Shown piece by piece: positions 353 to 9,967 of a stretch of DNA of 47,246 nt. Position 1 is the stretch's first letter. The number at the start of each line of letters is the position of its first letter. The notes below the pieces were generated by a model. That model worked only from the letters and a program-made list of their open reading frames with translations. It was not told where the DNA came from and did not search any database. The DNA comes from Candidatus Eiseniibacteriota bacterium (GTDB lineage Bacteria > Eisenbacteria > RBG-16-71-46 > CAIMUX01 > WJJG01): assembly GCA_030601305.1 (NCBI GenBank), contig JAUVTV010000001.1:1-47246 (forward strand), read 5' to 3'. The translations under genes and the position numbers were made by a program.

Positions 353-3019
353 ATGTCCGAGGATCCCGGCCGTCTACAGCGTTTCTTCGGCTCGGTGGAA
401 GAGGCCGCCCGCCCCGGGTGGCGCTGGCTCCTGCTCCTCGTCGGATGGATCCTCGCACGCAACCTCCTGGAAGGCATTCTCGAACACCCGCACCAGATGG
501 GCTTCGACTGGCGCGGGGAGATCTCGTTCGCGATGTTCTTCCTTCACTTCCCGCTCTTCTACCTCGCGCTCTTTGTCGTCACGGCGCTCTGGATTCACTG
601 GCTGAGCGGCCGATCGCTGGCGAGGGTGGCCGGCGCCGTGTCGGTGGGCTTCGCGGTTCTCCTGATCGTGCCGATCCTGGATGCGCTCGTTTCCTCGGGC
701 CGCGGCTACGACCTGCGCTATCTGGTCGGCTTCGAAGGGATCTTCTTCAGATTCTGGGATCCCACCGCGGCGCATCCCGCGATCTCGCCGGGGCAGCGCG
801 TGGAGGTCGTCCTCGCCTGCGTGCTGTGCGCAGCCTATGTCTACGCGTCCCGACGGGGTGTGCAGCCATCGGTTCCCGGCGCGATCCTCCGCGCGACACT
901 TGCCGTGGCCGGGTTCTTCGTGCTCGCAGCGCTTCTCGGCGCCTGGCCCTCGCTCTTTGCGCAATGGCTCTATCCCAAGGCGACCCCGTTGGCGGACCCG
1001 AACATGACCGCCTTTCGCGGCCCGGGTCTCGTGCCGGGCGAGGGCCGGCGTCTGGCCCTGGTGGTCGCAATGCCTCTCCTGCTCGCCCTGCCGCTCTTCC
1101 TTCAGCGAATGCGCCCCGATCGCGTGGCGGGGGTGCTGCGTGCGATGAGCTGGTCCCGCCTCTTCTACTACACGGGCCTGGTTCCCGCGGGCGTATGGCT
1201 CGCCTGGCTCGTCTATCACGAGCACCTGCCGCGCGCCTCCATCACACCCGTCGATGCGGTTGCCACCTGTGTGCTGTGGGTGGCGATGGTCTGCGCGTAT
1301 CTAGCGTCGCTCTTCTGGAACGATCTCAACGATCGCGAGGCCGATGCAGTCAACGAGCCGCACCGTCCGCTGCCGCGGGGGATCCTCGCGAGCCGGGACG
1401 CGAGCACGTACGCCCGCGCGGCCGCGGGTCTGGCCCTCTTCCTCTCACTGTGCGTGAGCTATCACGCGTTCCTGCTCATGATCGCGTGTCTCTTCCTCGC
1501 GTGGCTCTACTCATGTCCACCGGTGCGCCTCAAGCGGTGGCCGTTCGTAGCGACCTTCACGCTTGCGATCCTCTCGCTGATCTCGCTCGCAACCGGGTTC
1601 TCGCTCTACGCGCAGGAGATGACGCCGCTCGGCCTCCCGCGCCGGGTCGCGCTCTTCCTTCTGGTGGGCGTCACCCTGGGGTTCGTTGCGAAGGACCTCA
1701 AGGATGCTCCTGGAGATCGCCGCACGGGTGTCGTGACCCTGGCAACCCTGCTGCCGGAAAGGGGCGCGCGCATCGTAACCGCTCTACTCGTCGCGCTCGC
1801 CTTCCTACTCGTCCCGCTCATCCTGCCCATGGGCTGGATCTTCGTGTTGATCAGCGCACTCTTCGCGCTCGCCGGTGCCCTGCTGACGCTGCGCGTCCGG
1901 AGGCCCGATTCCGCTCTCCTCGTGGGGCTCCTCGTCTTCGGTGTCGTTCTGGGCTTCTTTCTCACGCGGCACAAAGAGCTCGTCCAGGAGCGCGTTCCGT
2001 CGGCCATCCGTGACCTGCAGGCGGACATGATCGCGGGTGAACAGGGTGTCCGTCTGACGCGCCTCTGGGTGGAGAACCCAAGGAACCGCGAAATGCAGCC
2101 CCCGGGACCGGGGGCGCGCGAGCGACTCACCGTCTTTCGCGATCTCACGTCGCGAGCCCAAGAGCAATGCACGCTTTGGCCGGCCTGGGAGGAGAGGTTG
2201 GGATGGCTGCGCGTGCAGGCCGGCAGCTTCCTTGGCCCGGCACGAAACGCCGATGAAAGAAACCGGGCGCAGGCCATCTGGAGCGACCTGGGTCGCCTCC
2301 AGATGATCCGTCCCTCGCGCGCGGCCTACTGGGACGCGCAGGTCTCGCTGGCGCAGCGCTGGGAGGGATGGGAGCGGGGGTTCTTGGCGTGCACGCAGGC
2401 GCTCGCGCTGGGCCTGCGACCCGGGGACTTCCTCCGCAACCGGGCGGCGCTCCGTCTGGCCCGGGGCGCGGGCGGCTGGCCGGCGCCCGAGTTGAACGCG
2501 GGAGATCTGGCCGCCATTGGCCGTGACCTCGCGGGAGCGTTTCTCTACGGCGGCCAGCGGACAACGCGCTGGGTCCTGCTCGGAGACTGGCTGGCGACGA
2601 TCGGGGAACGAACCCGCGCGCAGGAGGCCTACCGCGAGGCGCTCCGCACCGACGTGCGAAGTGTGGACGGGTGGAGCGGCCTCGGACAGACGTTTTGCGC
2701 CGCGGGGGAACTGGAGGACGCGAGGGTCGCGTACGAGGAGGCGCGGGGGCTGGATCCATTCGATCCCTGGGTGCTCAACAACCTCGGCGTCGTGCTGCGC
2801 GATCTCGGTCGCCCGGAGGAAGCGCGCTTCCGGTTTCGGGAAGCGCACCAATGTGGCCGGCGGTTGATCGAGCCGCTCTACAACTTGGGCCGGACCTGCG
2901 AGCTGCTGGGGCGTCCGGACGAAGCGCGCCAGTGGTACGAACGGGGGCGCGCCGTACGCCCGGGATTCCCGCCGCTCGAAGATGCGCTGCGAGCCCTCGA
3001 CGAGAGAGAGGGCCCATGA
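353..3019 (+). CDS. UbiA-family prenyltransferase domain with an extra N-terminal polytopic membrane domain (~300 aa) and C-terminal TPR repeats (888 aa).
   Basis: UbiA motif 1 is NDLNDREADAVNEPHRPLPRG and motif 2 is KDLKDAPGDRRTGVVTLA, both within hydrophobic segments. The C-terminal ~250 aa carry TPR-like repeats (e.g. AYEEARGLDPFDPWVLNNLGVVLRDLGRPEEA and LYNLGRTCELLGRPDEARQWYERG). Confidence 0.8.
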   Translation: MSEDPGRLQRFFGSVEEAARPGWRWLLLLVGWILARNLLEGILEHPHQMGFDWRGEISFAMFFLHFPLFYLALFVVTALWIHWLSGRSLARVAGAVSVGFAVLLIVPILDALVSSGRGYDLRYLVGFEGIFFRFWDPTAAHPAISPGQRVEVVLACVLCAAYVYASRRGVQPSVPGAILRATLAVAGFFVLAALLGAWPSLFAQWLYPKATPLADPNMTAFRGPGLVPGEGRRLALVVAMPLLLALPLFLQRMRPDRVAGVLRAMSWSRLFYYTGLVPAGVWLAWLVYHEHLPRASITPVDAVATCVLWVAMVCAYLASLFWNDLNDREADAVNEPHRPLPRGILASRDASTYARAAAGLALFLSLCVSYHAFLLMIACLFLAWLYSCPPVRLKRWPFVATFTLAILSLISLATGFSLYAQEMTPLGLPRRVALFLLVGVTLGFVAKDLKDAPGDRRTGVVTLATLLPERGARIVTALLVALAFLLVPLILPMGWIFVLISALFALAGALLTLRVRRPDSALLVGLLVFGVVLGFFLTRHKELVQERVPSAIRDLQADMIAGEQGVRLTRLWVENPRNREMQPPGPGARERLTVFRDLTSRAQEQCTLWPAWEERLGWLRVQAGSFLGPARNADERNRAQAIWSDLGRLQMIRPSRAAYWDAQVSLAQRWEGWERGFLACTQALALGLRPGDFLRNRAALRLARGAGGWPAPELNAGDLAAIGRDLAGAFLYGGQRTTRWVLLGDWLATIGERTRAQEAYREALRTDVRSVDGWSGLGQTFCAAGELEDARVAYEEARGLDPFDPWVLNNLGVVLRDLGRPEEARFRFREAHQCGRRLIEPLYNLGRTCELLGRPDEARQWYERGRAVRPGFPPLEDALRALDEREGP

Positions 3020-3561
3020 GGCCCCGGAGGCAACCTATGGAACCGGAAGAGCTCATTGCCCGCCTGAACCTGCGCCCGCATCCGCGTGAGGGTGCCTATT
3101 TCGCCGAAACCTACCGCTCCGGGGAAGAGGTCGCGGCCCGAGCTTTGCCACCGCGCTACGCCGGAGCGCGGCCCCTGGGAACCGCGATCTATTTCCTGAT
3201 CACGGCCGACCACTCCTCCGCACTCCACCGCCTCCAGACCGACGAGATCTACCACTTCTACCTGGGGGATCCGGTCGAGTTGCTCCAGCTATCAGGCGAT
3301 GGAACGGGACGCCTCTTCACGCTCGGTCCGAACCCTTTCCTGGGGATGCAGCCCCAGCTGGTCGTTCCGCGGGGGGTTTGGCAGGGCGCACGCCTGCGGC
3401 CCGGGGGGCGCTTCGCGCTACTGGGAATGACCACCGCCCCCGGATTCGACTACGCCGACTACGAGCACGGCGATCGCCAGCAGCTCCTGGCGGCCTACCC
3501 TCAGTTCTCGGAGGCCATCCGGGCGTTGACCGCGGAGCAATCTCCCGAGCAGCGCGGATGA
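3016..3561 (+). CDS. Cupin-superfamily protein, DUF985 (Cupin_5) family, 181 aa.
   Basis: Contains LNLRPHPREGAYFAETYRS...TAIYFLI...SALHRLQTDEIYHFYLGDP...APGFDYADYE. The ATG at 3016 overlaps the upstream TGA (ATGA). The longer track ORF from 2671 lies inside the previous gene, so I reject that start. Confidence 0.85.
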   Translation: MRPRRQPMEPEELIARLNLRPHPREGAYFAETYRSGEEVAARALPPRYAGARPLGTAIYFLITADHSSALHRLQTDEIYHFYLGDPVELLQLSGDGTGRLFTLGPNPFLGMQPQLVVPRGVWQGARLRPGGRFALLGMTTAPGFDYADYEHGDRQQLLAAYPQFSEAIRALTAEQSPEQRG

Positions 3562-3642
3562 CTTCCGCCACGGGCCTCTCCGCCTCCTCACGACGGCCGT
3601 TCATGAATGGTCCGGGCTCGGCGCGTGGCAAAAGCCGCGATC

Positions 3643-3670
3643 TTGACAAATACGAATATTCGCGTATGGT
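3643..3670 (+). promoter_or_regulatory. Putative sigma-70 promoter with an embedded palindromic operator upstream of the ArsR-family gene.
   Basis: TTGACA at 3643-3648, a 16-nt spacer, then TATGGT at 3665-3670. A perfect 10-bp palindrome, CGAATATTCG (3653-3662), sits in the spacer. The site lies in a local AT-rich island. Confidence 0.45.
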
Positions 3671-3693
3671 GATATTTGAAATGCGAGGTACCC

Positions 3694-4065
3694 ATGCGCA
3701 AACCCACGGCCGACGAACTGGAGCTGCTGCACAGCGAGCTGTGTAGCGTGCTCGGCGACCCGACCCGCATCGCCATCTTGTACGAGCTGGCGGACGGGCC
3801 GCGCAATGTCACGAGCATCGTGGAGGCGCTGGGGGTCCACCAGGCCACGGTCTCGCGGCACTTGCGCATCCTGCGCGAGCGGGGGTTGGCGCGAGCTGAG
3901 CGGGACGGAAACCAGGTCTTCTACGAGCTGGCGGAGCCGCGGGTCCTGGATGTGCTCACGCTGATGCGGGAGGTCCTCACGGACATCCTGCGGGAGCGGG
4001 GGGAGAAGGTGCGGCGGATCGTCGCGGCGGCCGGGCGCCGAAAGCCAGGTCGGCGGTCAGCTTGA
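3694..4065 (+). CDS. ArsR/SmtB-family winged-helix transcriptional regulator.
   Basis: Contains LGDPTRIAILYELADGPRNVTSIVEALGVHQATVSRHLRILRERGL. I prefer the ATG at 3694 (GAGGT 4 nt upstream) over the track's TTG at 3676, which would abut the -10 box. Confidence 0.85.
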   Translation: MRKPTADELELLHSELCSVLGDPTRIAILYELADGPRNVTSIVEALGVHQATVSRHLRILRERGLARAERDGNQVFYELAEPRVLDVLTLMREVLTDILRERGEKVRRIVAAAGRRKPGRRSA

Positions 4066-4090
4066 GAGGTGCAAGACGGAGGATCGGACG

Positions 4091-4636
4091 ATGGCAGTCG
4101 ATGTAGCCACTGAGCTGGCGGAGCTGAAAAAGAAGGTCGACGAGATGCAGCCGGGAGCGCTGCCCAAGCTCTCGATGGTCGTCTTCTCGGGAGACCTGGA
4201 CAAGCTGATTGCGGCGCTGATCATCGCGACCGGCGCGGTGGCGATGGGCATGCAGGCCGTGCTCTTTTTCACCTTCTGGGGCACCGCGGCGCTCCGCGAC
4301 CCCAAGGTCAACGTGGGTGGCAAGGACTTCATGTCCAAGATGTTCGGCTGGATGCTGCCCAAGGGGCGGGGCAAGCTGAAGCTTTCCAACATGCACATGG
4401 CGGGCATGGGCACCGCCATGCTCAAGGACCTCATGCGCAAGAAGAATGTCCCTTCGCTGGACCAGCTCTTCGAGATGGCGGCGCAACTCGGCGTGCAGAT
4501 CAAAGTGTGTGAGATGTCGATGGACTTGATGGGTTTCAAGCGCGAGGAGCTCATCGACTACCCGAACAAGGAATTCTGCGGCGTGGCGACGTTCCTGGCG
4601 GACGCCAAGGAGTCCAGCGTTCAGCTCTTCATCTAG
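4091..4636 (+). CDS. DsrE/DsrF/DsrH-like family protein (soluble, PF13686-type), 181 aa.
   Basis: Contains MVVFSGDLDKLIAALIIATGAVAMGMQAVLFFTFWG and a conserved-looking Cys in IKVCEMSMDLMG. A GGAGGA RBS lies upstream. Confidence 0.8.
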   Translation: MAVDVATELAELKKKVDEMQPGALPKLSMVVFSGDLDKLIAALIIATGAVAMGMQAVLFFTFWGTAALRDPKVNVGGKDFMSKMFGWMLPKGRGKLKLSNMHMAGMGTAMLKDLMRKKNVPSLDQLFEMAAQLGVQIKVCEMSMDLMGFKREELIDYPNKEFCGVATFLADAKESSVQLFI

Positions 4637-4649
4637 CACGGGAGGATTC

Positions 4650-4889
4650 ATGGCGGAGCACGATGCAGTCAAGGTTCTCGATCTCAAGGGACTGCCCTGT
4701 CCCATGCCGGTCGTGAAAATCAGTCAGGAAATCGGCTCGATCGATGTCGGCCAGGTTGTCGAGGTGCACACTACCGACCCCGGTTCCTTGGCGGACTTCC
4801 CCGCCTGGGCGAAGAGCTCGGGCAACGAGATCGTCGAGACCAAGCAGGAGGAAGGACTCATCCGCATCTTCGTCAAACGCGTGAAGTAG
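4650..4889 (+). CDS. TusA/SirA-family sulfurtransferase, 79 aa.
   Basis: Contains LDLKGLPCPMPVVK, which carries the CPxP active-site motif. A GGGAGGA RBS lies upstream. Confidence 0.9.
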   Translation: MAEHDAVKVLDLKGLPCPMPVVKISQEIGSIDVGQVVEVHTTDPGSLADFPAWAKSSGNEIVETKQEEGLIRIFVKRVK

Positions 4890-4911
4890 GCGTGCCCGCG
4901 GTTCGTTTCGC

Positions 4912-5637
4912 ATGGGAGGAACCATGGCTGGATGGATCGGCTACTTCATCATGGTGCCCATGGTGTACATCGCCGTGGCGGTCTTCGTCATTGGAATCCT
5001 GGCGCGCGTCGCGCGCCTGCTGGCGTCGCCGAAGCACCCGTTCCCCCTGCGGCTCTACCCGGTGCCGTCATCGGCCCGGCTGTGTGCGCTGAAGGAAACC
5101 TTCCTCATGCCGCAGGTGCGCGCGCACGCGCCGCTCTTCTGGGTCTTCCTGATCCTCTTCCACATTGCCTTTCTGTTCCTCTTCCTGGGACATCTCGATC
5201 TGATCCCGGGCATCCACCTGATGCCGCCCGATTCGGTGCACATGCTCGGACATGGCTTCATCGGGCTGACCGTCACCCTGGCGACGTTCTACTTCCTCCT
5301 GCGGCGCATGCGCGGAACGCTGCGGGAGATCTCCGTGCTGGGGGACTACCTGCTCCTGCTCCTGCTCATCCTGCTCTTCCTCACCGGGGACACGGTCAGC
5401 TGGGCCAACTCCTGGAATCCGGATGGCTTCGTGATCGGCAAGGTCGAATTCGGCGACTACCTCCAGTCGCTGCTCGGCTTCACTTTCGCCAACCCACGTG
5501 ATCTGTTGCCGGGATCGCACTACATCGTGGTGGTGCTGCATGTCCTCCTGGCCAATCTGTTCCTGATCCTCTTCCCCTTCACCAAGATCATGCATACCTT
5601 CTTCGCCCTGCCGATGAACCGTCTGAGGAGAGGCTGA
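4912..5637 (+). CDS. NarI/DsrM/HdrE-like membrane b-type cytochrome (nitrate reductase gamma family).
   Basis: About 5-6 TM helices with spaced His residues (HAPLFWVFLILFHIAFLFLFLGH; HYIVVVLHVLL...KIMH). It is followed 1 nt later by a CCG-domain Fe-S protein. An alternative ATG at 4924 sits just after GGGAGGA. Confidence 0.75.
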   Translation: MGGTMAGWIGYFIMVPMVYIAVAVFVIGILARVARLLASPKHPFPLRLYPVPSSARLCALKETFLMPQVRAHAPLFWVFLILFHIAFLFLFLGHLDLIPGIHLMPPDSVHMLGHGFIGLTVTLATFYFLLRRMRGTLREISVLGDYLLLLLLILLFLTGDTVSWANSWNPDGFVIGKVEFGDYLQSLLGFTFANPRDLLPGSHYIVVVLHVLLANLFLILFPFTKIMHTFFALPMNRLRRG

Positions 5638-5638
5638 T

Positions 5639-6910
5639 ATGGACGTCGCGCTACAGGAGACGCTCAAAGGTCTGTTCCAAACCAAGCTGAATCGCGAGAT
5701 GCGCCTCTACCTGGACACTTGCGCGCGCTGCGGTGTCTGCATCGAGGCCTGCCACGTCTATGCCTCGCGCCCCGAGGCGCGCTACACCGCGGTGGGGCGC
5801 GCGGAAGTCATCCGGCGTCTCTTTCGCCAGTACTTCAAGGCGGAGGGCGGAATCGCGCCCTGGTTGGGTGAGACGATCGCACTGGATGACCCGACCCTCG
5901 AGAAGGTCTACGAAGCGGCCTACACCTGCACCGGCTGCCGGCGCTGCATGACCTACTGTCCCTTTGGCATCGACACGCAGATGATCCAGTCGATCGGCAA
6001 GCTCCTCCTGATCGGGGCCGATCGGGAACCGAAGCTGCTGACCATGCTCGCTGTCAAGGATGCGGCGACCACCGAGATCTACACGGAGACCAAGGCCGAC
6101 TTCGAGACGGCGATGAAGAACCTCGAGGCCGAGGTGATCGAGAAGTGGCGTTCGGAAGCCGGGGAGAAGGCGATTCCGGTGGGGGCGATCGGCTCGGACG
6201 TCCTCTATGTCGCCCTTGCCGGCAAGCACTCGATCATCCCCGCGGCGGCCATCATGAACGCCGCCCAGGAGAACTGGTCGCTCTCCTATTTCGAGGCGGT
6301 CAACTTCGGCGCGTTCGTCGGCAATCCCGAGAAGACCCAGGAGATCTCAGCGCGCATCATCGACGAAGCCACGCGTCTCGGCGCCCGCGAGGTGGCCGTC
6401 TGCGAGTGCGGCACCGCCTACCGGGTGCTGAAGCATCAGATCGGAAGTCAACCCTTCGAGGTGATCAGCTTCGTCGAGCTGATCGATCGCTACTTGGAGG
6501 CGGGTCGCATCCGGTTGCGGCCGGGCACCCTCGAAGGCCGGGTCACGTATCACGACCCATGTCAGATGGGGCGCAACGGCGGGGTCCTCGAAGCCCCCCG
6601 GCGGGTCCTCCGCCATCTCGGCGCGGAATTCGTCGAGATGGAGCCCAATCGCGGCGACAACTGGTGTTGCGGCGGGGGCGGCGGGCTGGTGGCGATGGGC
6701 GAGAAAGACTTTCGCATGTGGTCGGCCCGCGTGAAGGCCGATCAGGTGAAGGCCACCGGAGCCTCCGTCGTGGCCACCGCCTGCGAGAACTGTCACGCGC
6801 AGCTCTCCGATCTCAACGAGCACTACGAGTTGGGGACGCGCGTCGCGTTTCTCTCCAGCTTGGTCGCCGACGCGCTAGCCGGCCGTGGCAGAAGTCATCC
6901 GGGCGGCTAA
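5639..6910 (+). CDS. HdrD/DsrK-like iron-sulfur oxidoreductase with two 4Fe-4S ferredoxin motifs and a CCG domain, 423 aa.
   Basis: Ferredoxin motifs are CARCGVCIEACHV and CTGCRRCMTYCPF. Cys-rich CCG-type motifs are HDPCQMGRNGG and NWCCGGGGG. Confidence 0.85.
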   Translation: MDVALQETLKGLFQTKLNREMRLYLDTCARCGVCIEACHVYASRPEARYTAVGRAEVIRRLFRQYFKAEGGIAPWLGETIALDDPTLEKVYEAAYTCTGCRRCMTYCPFGIDTQMIQSIGKLLLIGADREPKLLTMLAVKDAATTEIYTETKADFETAMKNLEAEVIEKWRSEAGEKAIPVGAIGSDVLYVALAGKHSIIPAAAIMNAAQENWSLSYFEAVNFGAFVGNPEKTQEISARIIDEATRLGAREVAVCECGTAYRVLKHQIGSQPFEVISFVELIDRYLEAGRIRLRPGTLEGRVTYHDPCQMGRNGGVLEAPRRVLRHLGAEFVEMEPNRGDNWCCGGGGGLVAMGEKDFRMWSARVKADQVKATGASVVATACENCHAQLSDLNEHYELGTRVAFLSSLVADALAGRGRSHPGG

Positions 6911-6912
6911 CG

Positions 6913-7545
6913 TCACAAGTACTGACTCGTGATCTGCACGACATCGATGAAGAGGTAGTTCATCCGGCCGATCAGGAGCGATATACGACCCATCACCGTG
7001 TACCCGAACGCGGCGCCGAATCCCAGCATCAGAAACCAAATGCCCACCCGCGATACCACGCCGACGGCACGCTTGTGCTCAATCGAGAAGTAGAAGTAGA
7101 TCAGCACCGACAGCACGCCGACCATCATGATCAGGTTGTCGACGGGGGTGAAGTTGCCGCCAATCGGATGCAGGATCGTCTTGCCGACTTGCGGAACGAC
7201 CTCTCCCTGCAGTTTCTGAACCATGAAGATGCCGACGTAGTACGCGATGTAGACGGCCAGTGAGAGGCGCGCCATCCAGGCGATCCTCGGGATGTAGCGC
7301 GTGTAGAGATTGAGGCCCAGGAGCAGAGGGATGAGCAGGTGGGCATTGCCCGAGAAGTCGGCGGTCAGCGGTCGGATCATGTTGGGAACCAAGGTGTTGG
7401 TCGAGACGATCCCGATGTAATACCCTAGGGAGACACCGGCGAAGAGGCTCTCGGCGAACCGGAAGAACGGATTGTCCTTGTACAGGAAGCTGAAGATACA
7501 GAGCGTCAGGAAAGCTCCGAGCCAGACGCCGAGCAGTTCGGACAT
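6913..7545 (-). CDS. Polytopic membrane protein (~6 TM), unknown family. Module gene D, 210 aa.
   Basis: Hydrophobic throughout (MSELLGVWLGAFLTLCIFSFLY...). A GGGGGAG RBS lies 7 nt upstream and the gap from the preceding gene is 21 nt. Confidence 0.75.
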   Translation of the reverse strand: MSELLGVWLGAFLTLCIFSFLYKDNPFFRFAESLFAGVSLGYYIGIVSTNTLVPNMIRPLTADFSGNAHLLIPLLLGLNLYTRYIPRIAWMARLSLAVYIAYYVGIFMVQKLQGEVVPQVGKTILHPIGGNFTPVDNLIMMVGVLSVLIYFYFSIEHKRAVGVVSRVGIWFLMLGFGAAFGYTVMGRISLLIGRMNYLFIDVVQITSQYL

Positions 7546-7566
7546 CAGGACGCTCCCCCTGTTCTT

Positions 7567-8451
7567 CTACTGTTCAAGACGCGCCTCCCTCTTCTCCCGT
7601 CGGCGAATCAGGAAGTAGACACCGTTCCCGTAGAGGATGAAAAGCATGATGATCGCGTGGTCGACGGTCTGCGCATCCATGCCCTTCATCGCGTTGTATT
7701 CCCCGGCCTTGCTGTAGATGGGCTCAAGGGCCGGATAGCGGTCGATCAGCAGTTGTTCGTACTCGGAGGCCCCTTTCAGCCCTCCCAGCAGGCCCAGCAT
7801 CTGGCCCGAGTCGAGGAAGGCGTAGTACTTCGGCGCCGACACGGCGGTGCAGCCCACCGCGACCGGCGTGCCGAACTGGGCATTGACCAGGTTGGCCCAC
7901 CACTCGCCGATGACGTTCGTCGCGATGCTCACCACCAGCGCGATGTTCGCGTAGTTGAGCACCTGCGTCATCAGCGGCAGCTCATCGAGGGGCGTGCCCT
8001 CCTGATCGCTGGGAAAGACCCCGGAGAAGGCGACGCCCATCTGCTTCATGGTCGCTTGGGCACCGTCCTTGTAACCCAGGAAGACGTAGTCCTCGCCCTC
8101 GACGAGGTCGGGGTACTGGGGAACGATCTTCTCCAGCGCCTCGCCGGCCATGGTGACGCCCCCGAGCGGGAAGAGGGCCACGACGACCACCTTGATCCCG
8201 CGCGTGAAGCAGTGGCGCAAGACCGCCTCGGCCATCGGGTCGCATTCGGGCGCGGTCGTGGGGCCGTAGTCAAAGGAGACGAGTACCGCATCATCGCCGC
8301 CGAGGCTCTCGACCTTGGCAAAGAAGTTCTCCACCGGGGGCGTCGTGGAGACGGCGAAGCCGATGGGCTTCAGGATCGGGATGAGCGTCCCGAGGGCGAT
8401 CAGCAGATAGACGATCCGGCGATCGACTTGCACGAGTCGCTCGAGATTCAC
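7567..8451 (-). CDS. Bitopic membrane protein (N-terminal TM, ~230-aa soluble domain, C-terminal TM), unknown family. Module gene C, 294 aa.
   Basis: GTG start preceded by GGAGG with 6-nt spacing. TM segments are IVYLLIALGTLIPIL and AIIMLFILYGNGVYFLI. I found no nucleotide-binding motif. Confidence 0.75.
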   Translation of the reverse strand: MNLERLVQVDRRIVYLLIALGTLIPILKPIGFAVSTTPPVENFFAKVESLGGDDAVLVSFDYGPTTAPECDPMAEAVLRHCFTRGIKVVVVALFPLGGVTMAGEALEKIVPQYPDLVEGEDYVFLGYKDGAQATMKQMGVAFSGVFPSDQEGTPLDELPLMTQVLNYANIALVVSIATNVIGEWWANLVNAQFGTPVAVGCTAVSAPKYYAFLDSGQMLGLLGGLKGASEYEQLLIDRYPALEPIYSKAGEYNAMKGMDAQTVDHAIIMLFILYGNGVYFLIRRREKREARLEQ

Positions 8452-8461
8452 CGCGCGCCTC

Positions 8462-9160
8462 CTACTTCTCCCGAATTCCCAGATAGGAACGCTCGATTCC
8501 CAAGATCACCCGCAGCGAGAGCGCCGCGGCCCCGAGCGCCGCGCCGATGATGATGCCGCGCTGCGCGGCGGCGTTCGGCACCGCCATGATCCACTCCGTC
8601 ACCCACGGTAGGAAGGTCTCGCCGTTCGGCAGCCAGCTGAAGACGTATTCGCCGAGCGGCGTGCGCCCCAGCATCACGATGAAGGCCGCCGTCAAGAGGA
8701 TCGTGGCCTCGACGTTGCGCACGCGGAAGGCGCGAAAGGCGGCCGAGGCGACGTAGAACGCGAGCAGGCTGAACATGGCCGCCTGCAGCGGATTGAACAG
8801 ATGGCGGGTCATCCAGTAGAACGGCGTGTCACTGCCGTCGGGTGCCGTGAGGATGCTCTGGAAGGGACCCACGCGCGCGGCGCTCAGGATTCCGAAGGCG
8901 CCCATGACGAACAGCCCAAGCAGCAAGCTGACTGCGAAGGGCCAGCCGGGTTTGCGTCGTTCGATCTTTCGGATGTTGCCCTGGACGACGTTGACCACGC
9001 CCAGCAGCAGGGCGAAGCCGGTGATGATGACCATGTACTGTTCGACGCGATCCCGCACGAAGGCGACACCCCAGACCCGCTCGGTGAGGAAGAACGTGAC
9101 GATCGGAACCAGGCCGACGATGAAGGTCAGCATGAGTGGCAGCCTGAGCTTCCAGAACAT
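8462..9160 (-). CDS. Polytopic membrane protein (~6 TM), unknown family. Module gene B, 232 aa.
   Basis: Hydrophobic segments run throughout the protein. GGAGGA lies upstream and the gap from gene A is 21 nt. Confidence 0.75.
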   Translation of the reverse strand: MFWKLRLPLMLTFIVGLVPIVTFFLTERVWGVAFVRDRVEQYMVIITGFALLLGVVNVVQGNIRKIERRKPGWPFAVSLLLGLFVMGAFGILSAARVGPFQSILTAPDGSDTPFYWMTRHLFNPLQAAMFSLLAFYVASAAFRAFRVRNVEATILLTAAFIVMLGRTPLGEYVFSWLPNGETFLPWVTEWIMAVPNAAAQRGIIIGAALGAAALSLRVILGIERSYLGIREK

Positions 9161-9181
9161 GGGTCTGCGCGTCCTCCGGCG

Positions 9182-9967
9182 TTACTGGATCGTCATGAAA
9201 TCCCGGAACCAGTGGATCCCGAAGATCTCGAGCAGGATTCCTACAATGATGTACAGGATGAGTCCCGCCTTCGTGAAATCCTGTCCCTTGATGCTGCCCA
9301 CCATGGCCGGTTCACCGGAAAGGTAGGCGCCCGCGGCGAAAAGCTCTTCGCCCATCAACGTGAAGTCGCAGACCACCGCGAAGAACGGCAGCTGCGTGAC
9401 CTCGGCCGTCCCGGCGATCTGGATCGCGCCCACCGATTGACCGGTTTCGGCCATGAGGAGCGACTCGGCGTGGAAGGCGCCGATGAGGAAGATCGCGGCG
9501 GGCTTGTCGCGAACCATGAGGCCGGTCACCGAGGCGCTGAAGGCGAACTGATCGTAGGTGACATAGTGCACCATCTCGGGGTGGAACAGCTCGGGCCGTC
9601 CCGCCTGCAGGTAGGCCTCGTGCACCGTGTCGCGCGTGGCGGCGAAGGTGAGCGGGTCCTTGTTGGGCACGTCGAGGTCGACGGTGTAGCGCGCGGTCAA
9701 GCCGGCCACGTGCCGCAGCACCGCGAGGCTGGCGATCGTCTGGATGTCATCCAACGTGCCCCCACCGGGAAGGTAGAGCACTTTCCTGCCCAGCTCGGTG
9801 GCTCGGCCCACAGCTTCTTCCATCGCTGCGATGCCCGCGATGCGGCGGATGAAGAGTTTCCTTCCGCGGCGGGCGAGGTTGATGAAGAGGAGGACAAAGA
9901 AACAGAAGACCAGGAGCACGACAAGAGGGGCGCCACACCGGCTGGGATCGTACCAGGTCTCTGGCAT
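9182..9967 (-). CDS. Bitopic membrane protein (N-terminal TM, ~190-aa soluble domain, C-terminal TM), unknown family. Module gene A, 261 aa.
   Basis: GGGAGGA RBS upstream. TM segments are PLVVLLVFCFFVLLFINLA and AGLILYIIVGILLEIFGI. Its topology and some local motifs are shared with gene C. Confidence 0.75.
   Translation of the reverse strand: MPETWYDPSRCGAPLVVLLVFCFFVLLFINLARRGRKLFIRRIAGIAAMEEAVGRATELGRKVLYLPGGGTLDDIQTIASLAVLRHVAGLTARYTVDLDVPNKDPLTFAATRDTVHEAYLQAGRPELFHPEMVHYVTYDQFAFSASVTGLMVRDKPAAIFLIGAFHAESLLMAETGQSVGAIQIAGTAEVTQLPFFAVVCDFTLMGEELFAAGAYLSGEPAMVGSIKGQDFTKAGLILYIIVGILLEIFGIHWFRDFMTIQ

Follow-up and report, generated by a model that had tools for sequence, protein, structure and literature searches.

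The locus described here raises the question of what is handled by a membrane-bound oxidoreductase resembling DsrMK when its genes stand behind those of two small sulfur carriers, TusA and a DsrE-family protein, in an operon that lacks DsrC. It lies at positions 3643-6910 of a stretch of 47,246 nucleotides (nt), called the window in the following, which is contig JAUVTV010000001.1, positions 1 to 47,246, of assembly GCA_030601305.1 from a Candidatus Eiseniibacteriota bacterium, a metagenome-assembled genome (MAG) of 2.24 Mb that is 69% complete. The plus-strand operon, hereafter the cassette, consists of five genes for an ArsR repressor, a DsrE protein of the DrsE_2 type, TusA, a cytochrome b of NarI fold and an iron-sulfur CCG protein. 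The best reading, to which a probability of about 0.55 is given, is that the membrane pair acts as a menaquinol-linked reductase of the DsrMK type on sulfane sulfur, or on a mixed di- or trisulfide, held by TusA and DsrE.

The genes for the repressor (3694-4065), the DrsE_2-type carrier (4091-4636), TusA (4650-4889), the cytochrome b (4912-5637) and the CCG subunit (5639-6910) are separated by gaps of 25, 13, 22 and 1 nt. Gene order, strand and gaps had been given in a preliminary description of this DNA and were reproduced by the table of open reading frames (ORFs); Pfam and NCBIfam matched all five family assignments made there. The motifs singled out for the two carriers, KVCEMSMD in the DsrE-like protein and LPCPMP, the CPxP site, in TusA, are both present.

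The last gene encodes a cytoplasmic iron-sulfur subunit of the DsrK/TmcB/HmcF type with 4Fe-4S dicluster domains and a CCG domain (PF02754, 56.8 bits). It contains two CX2CX2CX3C motifs and one full CCG motif (Cys308, 343, 344, 382 and 385); among the copies no variation is seen in the 8 ferredoxin-type cysteines, in the five CCG cysteines or in the sequence Glu256-Cys257-Gly258. The catalytic-type Cys257 sits in C-E-C-G-T and is preceded by an extra cysteine, Cys255, in 41 of 45 copies. A single CCG cluster and a strictly conserved cysteine in the motif T/GECGH are the common catalytic features of DsrK, HmcF and TmcB (Barbosa et al. 2024, PMC10861901), and apart from a His to Thr variation the protein shares with them the two [4Fe-4S] motifs, the single CCG motif and the conserved ECG cysteine. 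HdrD is characterized by two complete CCG motifs; here one Pfam CCG domain (residues 302-389) was found, and of the first motif only Cys255 and Cys257 remain.

In NCBIfam the protein scored 226 bits on DsrK, 217 on TmcB and 195 on HmcF versus 34 on GlcF and 41 and 29 on GlpC. Grouping with the non-sulfur enzymes GlcF or LutA had been named beforehand as the outcome that would break the link to sulfur; the protein is far closer to the DsrK model and belongs to none of GlcF, GlpC and LutA. At the same time it stays below the equivalog cut-offs of DsrK (NF045796, 400 bits), TmcB (735 bits) and HmcF (750 bits). In a maximum-likelihood tree with DsrK, TmcB and HmcF references from Desulfobacterota genomes, selected above the NCBIfam equivalog cut-offs, the cassette CCG proteins form one clade (SH-aLRT, approximate likelihood ratio test, 99) apart from the DsrK, TmcB and HmcF clades. 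Its sister group consists of Bacteroidota proteins with 38-40% identity and is likewise separate from those three. By these sequence comparisons the cassette is a distinct subfamily and neither HdrED nor DsrMK proper. Three cassette-bearing Desulfobacterota genomes also hold a bona fide DsrK, which scores 720-734 bits on the DsrK model versus 238-273 bits for the cassette copies; because the true DsrK coexists with the cassette in sulfate reducers, the cassette protein is a paralogue of DsrK and not its replacement.

The AlphaFold2 (AF2) model of the CCG subunit has a predicted local distance difference test (pLDDT) value of 80, and its best folds in the PDB are those of Mycobacterium smegmatis EtfD, LutA and HdrB. 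A sequence search of the PDB turned up no DsrK or DsrM structure. Among longer proteins, no fusion of the CCG subunit to either carrier or to the cytochrome b was found at E <= 1e-40, which is weak evidence.

The second membrane-complex subunit is a cytochrome b resembling DsrM, TmcC and HmcE. It matches PF02665 (Nitrate_red_gam) with 36.5 bits at a cut-off of 22.9, and its best NCBIfam match is TmcC (42 bits). The AF2 model (pLDDT 84.6) has Escherichia coli NarI (1q16_C) as the top Foldseek match, with a probability of 1.00 and a template modeling (TM) score of 0.63-0.70. His84 and His94 (10 apart), His210 and His228 (18 apart) and a further invariant histidine, His203, are kept in 54-55 of 55 copies. 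The spacings of 10 and 18 are presumably those of the heme ligands of NarI in helices 2 and 5. By this match His84, His94, His210 and His228 are the putative heme ligands, with His203 as a fifth invariant histidine. NarI fold and two histidine pairs of this spacing together place the protein among the dihaem cytochromes b of the NarI/DsrM/HdrE type, as the preliminary description had proposed.

Both carriers retain a single invariant or nearly invariant cysteine. The DsrE-like protein belongs to PF13686 (DrsE_2, 169.6 bits) and not to the DsrE2 equivalog NF047629, for which it reached 69.5 bits versus a cut-off of 210. Its Cys140, in V-C-E-M-S-M, is kept in 53 of 53 copies, the second cysteine, Cys163, is not conserved, and the active cysteine aligns with that of the closest solved structure, 3pnx, annotated as a 'putative sulfurtransferase DsrE'. 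TusA is identified by Pfam (PF01206, 78 bits, cut-off 28.6) and by the Cys-Pro-x-Pro site, whose Cys17 is kept in 54 of 55 copies; it is the single TusA match in the window's genome (69% complete). On NCBIfam the protein scored 41 bits on YedF and 38 bits on TusA, both far from the cut-offs of 79 and 78. With mean column identities of 70% for the CCG protein, 67% for DrsE_2 and 74% for TusA, the carriers are as conserved in sequence as the enzyme. A complex prediction with the CCG subunit, DrsE_2, TusA and three 4Fe-4S clusters gave a score that was not specific when compared with one control and was used neither for nor against an interaction.

Whether these genes form a unit was addressed with 79 distinct loci taken from species genomes, in which the other four cassette proteins were located by tblastn. 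Relatives of the CCG protein at 55-79% identity occur in many phyla, the closest homologues in a homology search belonging to Candidatus Eisenbacteria. The order DrsE_2-TusA-NarI-CCG on one strand was found in 54 non-redundant loci, whose sources are Eisenbacteria, Spirochaetota, Desulfomonile, Desulfarculaceae, Syntrophaceae, Desulfobacterales, Desulfatiglandales and a 'Cytophagia' MAG; Desulfomonile tiedjei, with its complete genome, has the same four-gene order. The carriers had been expected to stay next to the membrane pair in related genomes if the functional link were real, and this they do across several phyla, one small nested subclade excepted. In the Bacteroidota sister clade a Saprospiraceae locus (L065) has the same partners in another order, ArsR-TusA-DrsE_2-membrane protein-CCG. 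The pairwise distances of the CCG, DrsE_2 and TusA proteins correlate with r = 0.66-0.79, from which it follows that the cassette genes travel together in the sequences compared; taken alone the correlation is no demonstration of contact.

The distribution within the phylum of the window is patchy. Of the 151 genomes sampled, 5, which belong to a single family, gave an orthologue (at least 73% identity), and the CCG protein of the window shares 64-69% identity with Spirochaetota and Desulfobacterota copies; this combination points to horizontal spread of the genes. No description of the cluster was found in the open full-text literature, a coverage that leaves out subscription journals. Among described clusters, YTD and sHdr/TusA/DsrE3 come closest.

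The cassette also occurs outside the setting in which DsrMK is known. Searches of the window's genome at its 69% completeness gave no dsrA, aprA, DsrC or YeeE and no TusA besides that of the cassette, and dsrA was likewise not recovered from four relatives with the cassette (genomes 87-95% complete) or from one Spirochaetota carrier. A bona fide DsrK was not found in two of five carrier genomes searched. The two-cysteine substrate DsrC and the association with DsrAB, which define the DsrMK system, are missing from the cassette, and the sHdr genes (HdrA, HdrB1/B2, HdrC1/C2 and the lipoate-binding protein) are absent from the operon and not recurrent in the flanks of the 54 loci.

Three Eisenbacteria relatives contain a separate cluster, in which a two-cysteine DsrC (ending GACRIAGLPKPDGCV) is encoded with an HmcE/TmcC-like membrane protein and a DsrK/HmcF-like CCG protein (L091 42-2754, on contig C51 of genomes G005/G110; also on contig C81 of G062 and contig C19 of G085). 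The dsrA gene was not found in the Eisenbacteria genomes carrying this cluster. Its CCG paralogue, 32-37% identical to the cassette protein, is present in 21 of the 151 sampled phylum genomes, 3 of which also hold the cassette orthologue. In this lineage a DsrMK-like pair is thus encoded beside its carrier, and by analogy the arrangement supports TusA and DrsE_2 as the likely carriers of the cassette enzyme.

Comparison with described systems helps to place the cassette. DsrMKJOP is a menadiol:DsrC-trisulfide oxidoreductase (PMC10861901). With DsrMK the cassette shares the NarI-type dihaem cytochrome b, a cytoplasmic subunit in which the ECG cysteine accompanies two [4Fe-4S] motifs and one CCG motif, and, presumably, a small cysteine-bearing carrier protein as substrate. 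It differs in the motif CECGT versus GECGH, in the last CCG cysteine, which is kept where the compared DsrK copies have Asp, and in having two one-cysteine carriers, TusA and DrsE_2, in place of DsrC; it is also found in genomes where DsrAB was not found, whereas sulfate reducers hold both systems side by side. TmcBC and HmcEF have the same two-subunit architecture with a catalytic subunit of the single-CCG plus ECG-cysteine type, and the TmcB and HmcF scores come near the DsrK score, but the cassette operon has no gene for a cytochrome c subunit (TmcA/HmcA), and the clades are separate. HdrED of methanogens, the methanophenazine:CoM-S-S-CoB oxidoreductase, likewise combines a membrane b-type cytochrome with a CCG subunit and reduces a mixed disulfide. 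In HdrD, however, the CCG motif and the noncubane cluster are each present twice (PMC10861901), versus one CCG motif in the cassette protein, and the cassette substrate is presumably protein-bound, unlike the coenzyme pair of HdrED.

The relays of the sHdr, rDsr and YTD (YedE-TusA-DsrE2) systems resemble the cassette in pairing a CPxP TusA with a DsrE-family protein of one active cysteine, and ArsR-type repressors are known alongside sHdr and Sox clusters. In the cassette the relay is joined to a DsrMK-like pair in the membrane and not to soluble sHdr, to DsrAB/DsrEFH or to a YedE permease. The cassette also differs in its DsrE protein, which is of PF13686 and below the DsrE2 cut-off, and YedE was not found in the window's genome. 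Among solved structures, the CCG subunit is matched best by mycobacterial EtfD (PDB 9ojn; TM 0.65), which also comes second for the cytochrome b and combines a NarI-like domain with Fe-S and CCG domains; EtfD is, in contrast to the cassette pair, one fused polypeptide of about 1000 residues fed by electron-transfer flavoprotein (ETF), at 16-18% identity and with no link to sulfur carriers.

Read together with these systems, the cassette would work as follows. The NarI-fold cytochrome b would trade electrons with the menaquinone pool, and its two b hemes would pass them to the cytoplasmic CCG subunit. There, two cubane [4Fe-4S] clusters, one noncubane CCG cluster and the neighboring Cys257 of CECGT would form the catalytic set of DsrK, TmcB and HmcF. 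The place of DsrC would be taken by sulfane sulfur on Cys17 of TusA and Cys140 of DrsE_2, in the form of a persulfide or of a mixed TusA-S(n)-DsrE disulfide or trisulfide. Most likely the enzyme would reduce this carrier-bound sulfur with menaquinol, release sulfide and regenerate both thiols, and its role would be to clear or respire zero-valent sulfur entering the cell in sulfidic sediment. The gene set, its conservation as a unit, the residues of cofactors and active site, the folds and the separation from DsrK, TmcB and HmcF were observed, whereas the coupling to quinone, the nature of the substrate, the direction in which electrons flow and the signal of the repressor are inferred.

The regulators of the cassette bear on the signal to which it may respond. 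The window repressor is an ArsR protein (NF033788, 84.9 bits, cut-off 55; PF01022, HTH_5, 61.6 bits) whose ATG is preceded by GAGG, with an alternative TTG start at 3676. From the ATG start it has one cysteine, Cys17, as had been noted in setting it apart from the two-cysteine sensors BigR and SqrR; the comparison of full-length copies bears this out, and the score on the BigR model is 47 bits at a cut-off of 155. Among the type-A repressors, i.e. those of Eisenbacteria including the window copy, Cys17 is the only cysteine common to all six copies; Cys77 is found in two of them in addition, and their C-terminal tails are basic. The type-B repressors of other phyla contain Cys34 and a C-terminal CxxxC, and score only 49-62 bits on the BigR model. 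TsoR was considered as an identity for these regulators and dropped, at 66 bits for the window ArsR versus a cut-off of 115 and at 33-44 bits for the type-B proteins.

Upstream of the window repressor a sigma-70-type promoter (TTGACA at 3643-3648, a spacer of 16 nt and TATGGT at 3665-3670, plus strand) was found with a scan score of 10/12; this site at 3643-3670 is the best sigma-70-like site of the region, which holds 2 promoter-like sites versus a shuffle mean of 0.5. The spacer contains a perfect palindrome, CGAATATTCG (3653-3662, plus strand), read from the sequence as a putative operator. The operator appears to be conserved among orthologous ArsR genes, and a motif xATATTCG recurs, often twice, around the -10 box of type-A ArsR promoters (loci L005, L007 and L008); its recurrence supports autoregulation through the palindrome. 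The repressor bound to the palindrome would let go upon contact with thiol-reactive sulfur species.

Flank ORFs of all loci were clustered and then scanned with Pfam. The regulator gene upstream of the cassette is swapped between lineages and encodes a one-cysteine ArsR, a three-cysteine ArsR or a cysteine-rich MarR. ArsR genes precede about 23 loci, and a MarR gene for 159 amino acids precedes 25 loci of a Desulfobacterales-type clade (e.g. L058 3790-4266). The MarR proteins contain a conserved CC pair and a third conserved cysteine, which suggests that they may serve as thiol-based sensors in these cassettes. In about 6 loci a sigma-54 activator and a histidine kinase are encoded upstream on the opposite strand.

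In about 17 loci the gene that immediately follows the CCG gene encodes an outer-membrane channel of the FadL/TodX family with a signal peptide (L007 7302-8783, L049 7374-8630 and about 15 further loci); within 4.3 kb such a gene is found in 20 loci. The window has no FadL/TodX gene. The link suggests that in many lineages the external substrate may be hydrophobic, possibly S8 or an organic polysulfane. We know of no identified route by which sulfur passes the outer membrane, and the channel could be a candidate route for a hydrophobic sulfur compound.

Several observations weigh against the proposed menaquinol-linked reduction. In a nested subclade of 5 loci the NarI and CCG genes occur without the carriers, and the His of the ECGH motif is replaced in the CCG subunit by an invariant Thr. 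Modules of the CCG/NarI type also serve non-sulfur reactions, EtfD, the best structural match of the CCG subunit, being a case in point. With its single conserved cysteine the window ArsR is not of the BigR/SqrR type, so that a sulfur signal is only assumed for this copy. Finally, with menaquinol (about -70 mV) as donor, reducing a persulfide or trisulfide may be thermodynamically unfavorable, a doubt that applies to DsrMK in the same way (PMC10861901).

This last point leads to the most serious rival, in which the same machinery runs oxidatively: a carrier thiol or persulfide (e.g. TusA-SH and DsrE-S-SH, to a di- or trisulfide) would be oxidized and the electrons passed to menaquinone, as is thought for DsrMK(JOP) in sulfur oxidizers. 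Thiol oxidation with menaquinone as acceptor is downhill, the reverse being doubtful (PMC10861901), the sulfidic-sediment habitat is compatible with it, and TusA and DsrE-type carriers are best known from the sulfur-oxidizing systems rDsr and sHdr. Most carrier genomes, however, belong to strict anaerobes (Desulfobacterota, Spirochaetota), and no enzyme that would oxidize the sulfane sulfur further was found: searches for DsrAB gave nothing, and sHdr, Sox and Apr genes are not recurrent in the flanks. The reductive direction, from quinol to sulfide, is favored because the sole characterized relative acts reductively in vitro (PMC10861901) and because the carriers of the cassette are anaerobes; the oxidative direction is rather unlikely in comparison although it has to be taken seriously.

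The two other alternatives concern the role and the substrate. The cassette could belong to housekeeping sulfur mobilization, in which a cysteine desulfurase loads TusA and DsrE for the thiolation of cofactors or tRNA, while the membrane pair repairs disulfide-locked carriers or frees sulfide for biosynthesis. Class-V aminotransferase genes (cysteine-desulfurase-like, PF00266) do flank the cassette of the sister locus L065 on both sides (2167-3690 and 7306-8505), locus L002 has an Aminotran_5-ThiI pair 2.5 kb downstream, and the cassette TusA is the only one found in the window's genome. Across the 54 cassette loci, however, a cysteine desulfurase is not a recurrent neighbor, and both the occurrence in 5 of 151 phylum genomes and the dedicated lineage-specific repressors fit an accessory, inducible function, which makes a housekeeping role improbable. 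Selenium, with a TusA of YedF-like character, a metalloid sensed by ArsR or, in the FadL-linked versions, a hydrophobic organic disulfide or polysulfide instead of inorganic S0 would be a further choice of substrate, to which we also attach little credence. It is favored by the marginally better score of TusA on YedF (41 versus 38 bits in NCBIfam), by the membership of the regulator in the ArsR/SmtB metalloregulators, and by the FadL/TodX gene after the CCG gene in about 17 loci and the MarR gene before the cassette in 25. Against this, both scores are far under their cut-offs, the selenium genes SelD and YedE do not recur beside the cassette and a search of the window's genome gave no YeeE/YedE, the type-A ArsR is without the Cys/His sets known to bind metals, and elemental sulfur is itself hydrophobic, so that the FadL link is compatible with S0.

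The reductive reading can be extended to a self-contained 'split DsrC' system for respiration or detoxification. In it the cell would take up elemental sulfur or polysulfane, with FadL/TodX as the outer-membrane passage in many lineages, catch it as a mixed TusA-S(n)-DsrE polysulfide and reduce this with menaquinol by a dedicated DsrMK-like complex under conservation of energy. In this full form the proposal is speculative, and we regard it as doubtful.

The operon ends 2 nt before a convergent gene (6913-7545, minus strand). From this gap it had been concluded that there is no room for a terminator; the gap itself is as described, but a hairpin at 6869-6914 (plus strand; -24.7 kcal/mol, z = -1.5) resembling repetitive extragenic palindromic (REP) elements straddles the CCG stop codon and is the sole terminator-like structure between the convergent genes. 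It belongs to a dispersed element with the consensus CTAGCAGCCCG, a 14-nt loop and CGGGCTGCTAG, of which 96 copies occur on 71 of the 219 contigs of the genome. In the CCG gene it makes up the last 30 nt and the stop codon, encoding a non-conserved C-terminal tail. A second copy of the same repeat lies at 3554-3575 on the minus strand, and since both copies in the window sit at the 3' ends of genes, a preference of the element for gene ends is suggested by their positions. The two repeats were also considered as inverted boundaries of a mobile element, which was rejected since they are copies of the 96-copy element.

Directly upstream of the ArsR promoter lies another repeat of about 50 nt (3568-3618), with copies of 94-97% identity on the genome contigs C198, C75, C10, C194, C213 and C74; metagenome contigs from several runs break at this repeat. 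One metagenome contig joins position 3617 to 6877 and would represent a cassette-free variant, but with only 28 nt on its short side and dispersed repeats adjoining it is probably an assembly artefact. The convergent gene is part of a four-gene membrane module (6913-9967), one gene of which matches DUF6754 (352.7 bits) and the other three no Pfam family above the cut-off.

With respect to habitat, the DNA of the window was found nearly complete in one cold-seep metagenome, and parts of it turned up in runs from several studies on cold seeps and marine sediment. Short contigs on ArsR, at the NarI/CCG junction and within the CCG gene are present in a metatranscriptome library of what is probably the source study. 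These are a hint only, as contigs cannot show transcription and a carry-over of DNA is possible; the uncovered parts carry no meaning.

To our knowledge, complexes of the DsrMK type have been described only for the last step of dissimilatory sulfite reduction, where DsrC is the substrate, and we know of no physiological substrate for TmcB or HmcF. To these the cassette adds a third, widely transferred branch, which brings its own substrate candidates, TusA and DsrE, in the operon. It may serve as a testable model for the way in which single-CCG enzymes handle protein-bound sulfur and for the question whether quinol drives the reduction of persulfides or trisulfides, and likewise as a model for the handling of zero-valent sulfur in Dsr-free anaerobes (Eisenbacteria, Spirochaetota) of cold seeps. 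It also supplies a defined set of thiol-rich regulators with a testable signal. If the 'split DsrC' proposal were true, the cassette would represent a Dsr-independent and molybdenum-independent form of sulfur reduction that has spread horizontally among Desulfobacterota, Spirochaetota, Eisenbacteria and others.

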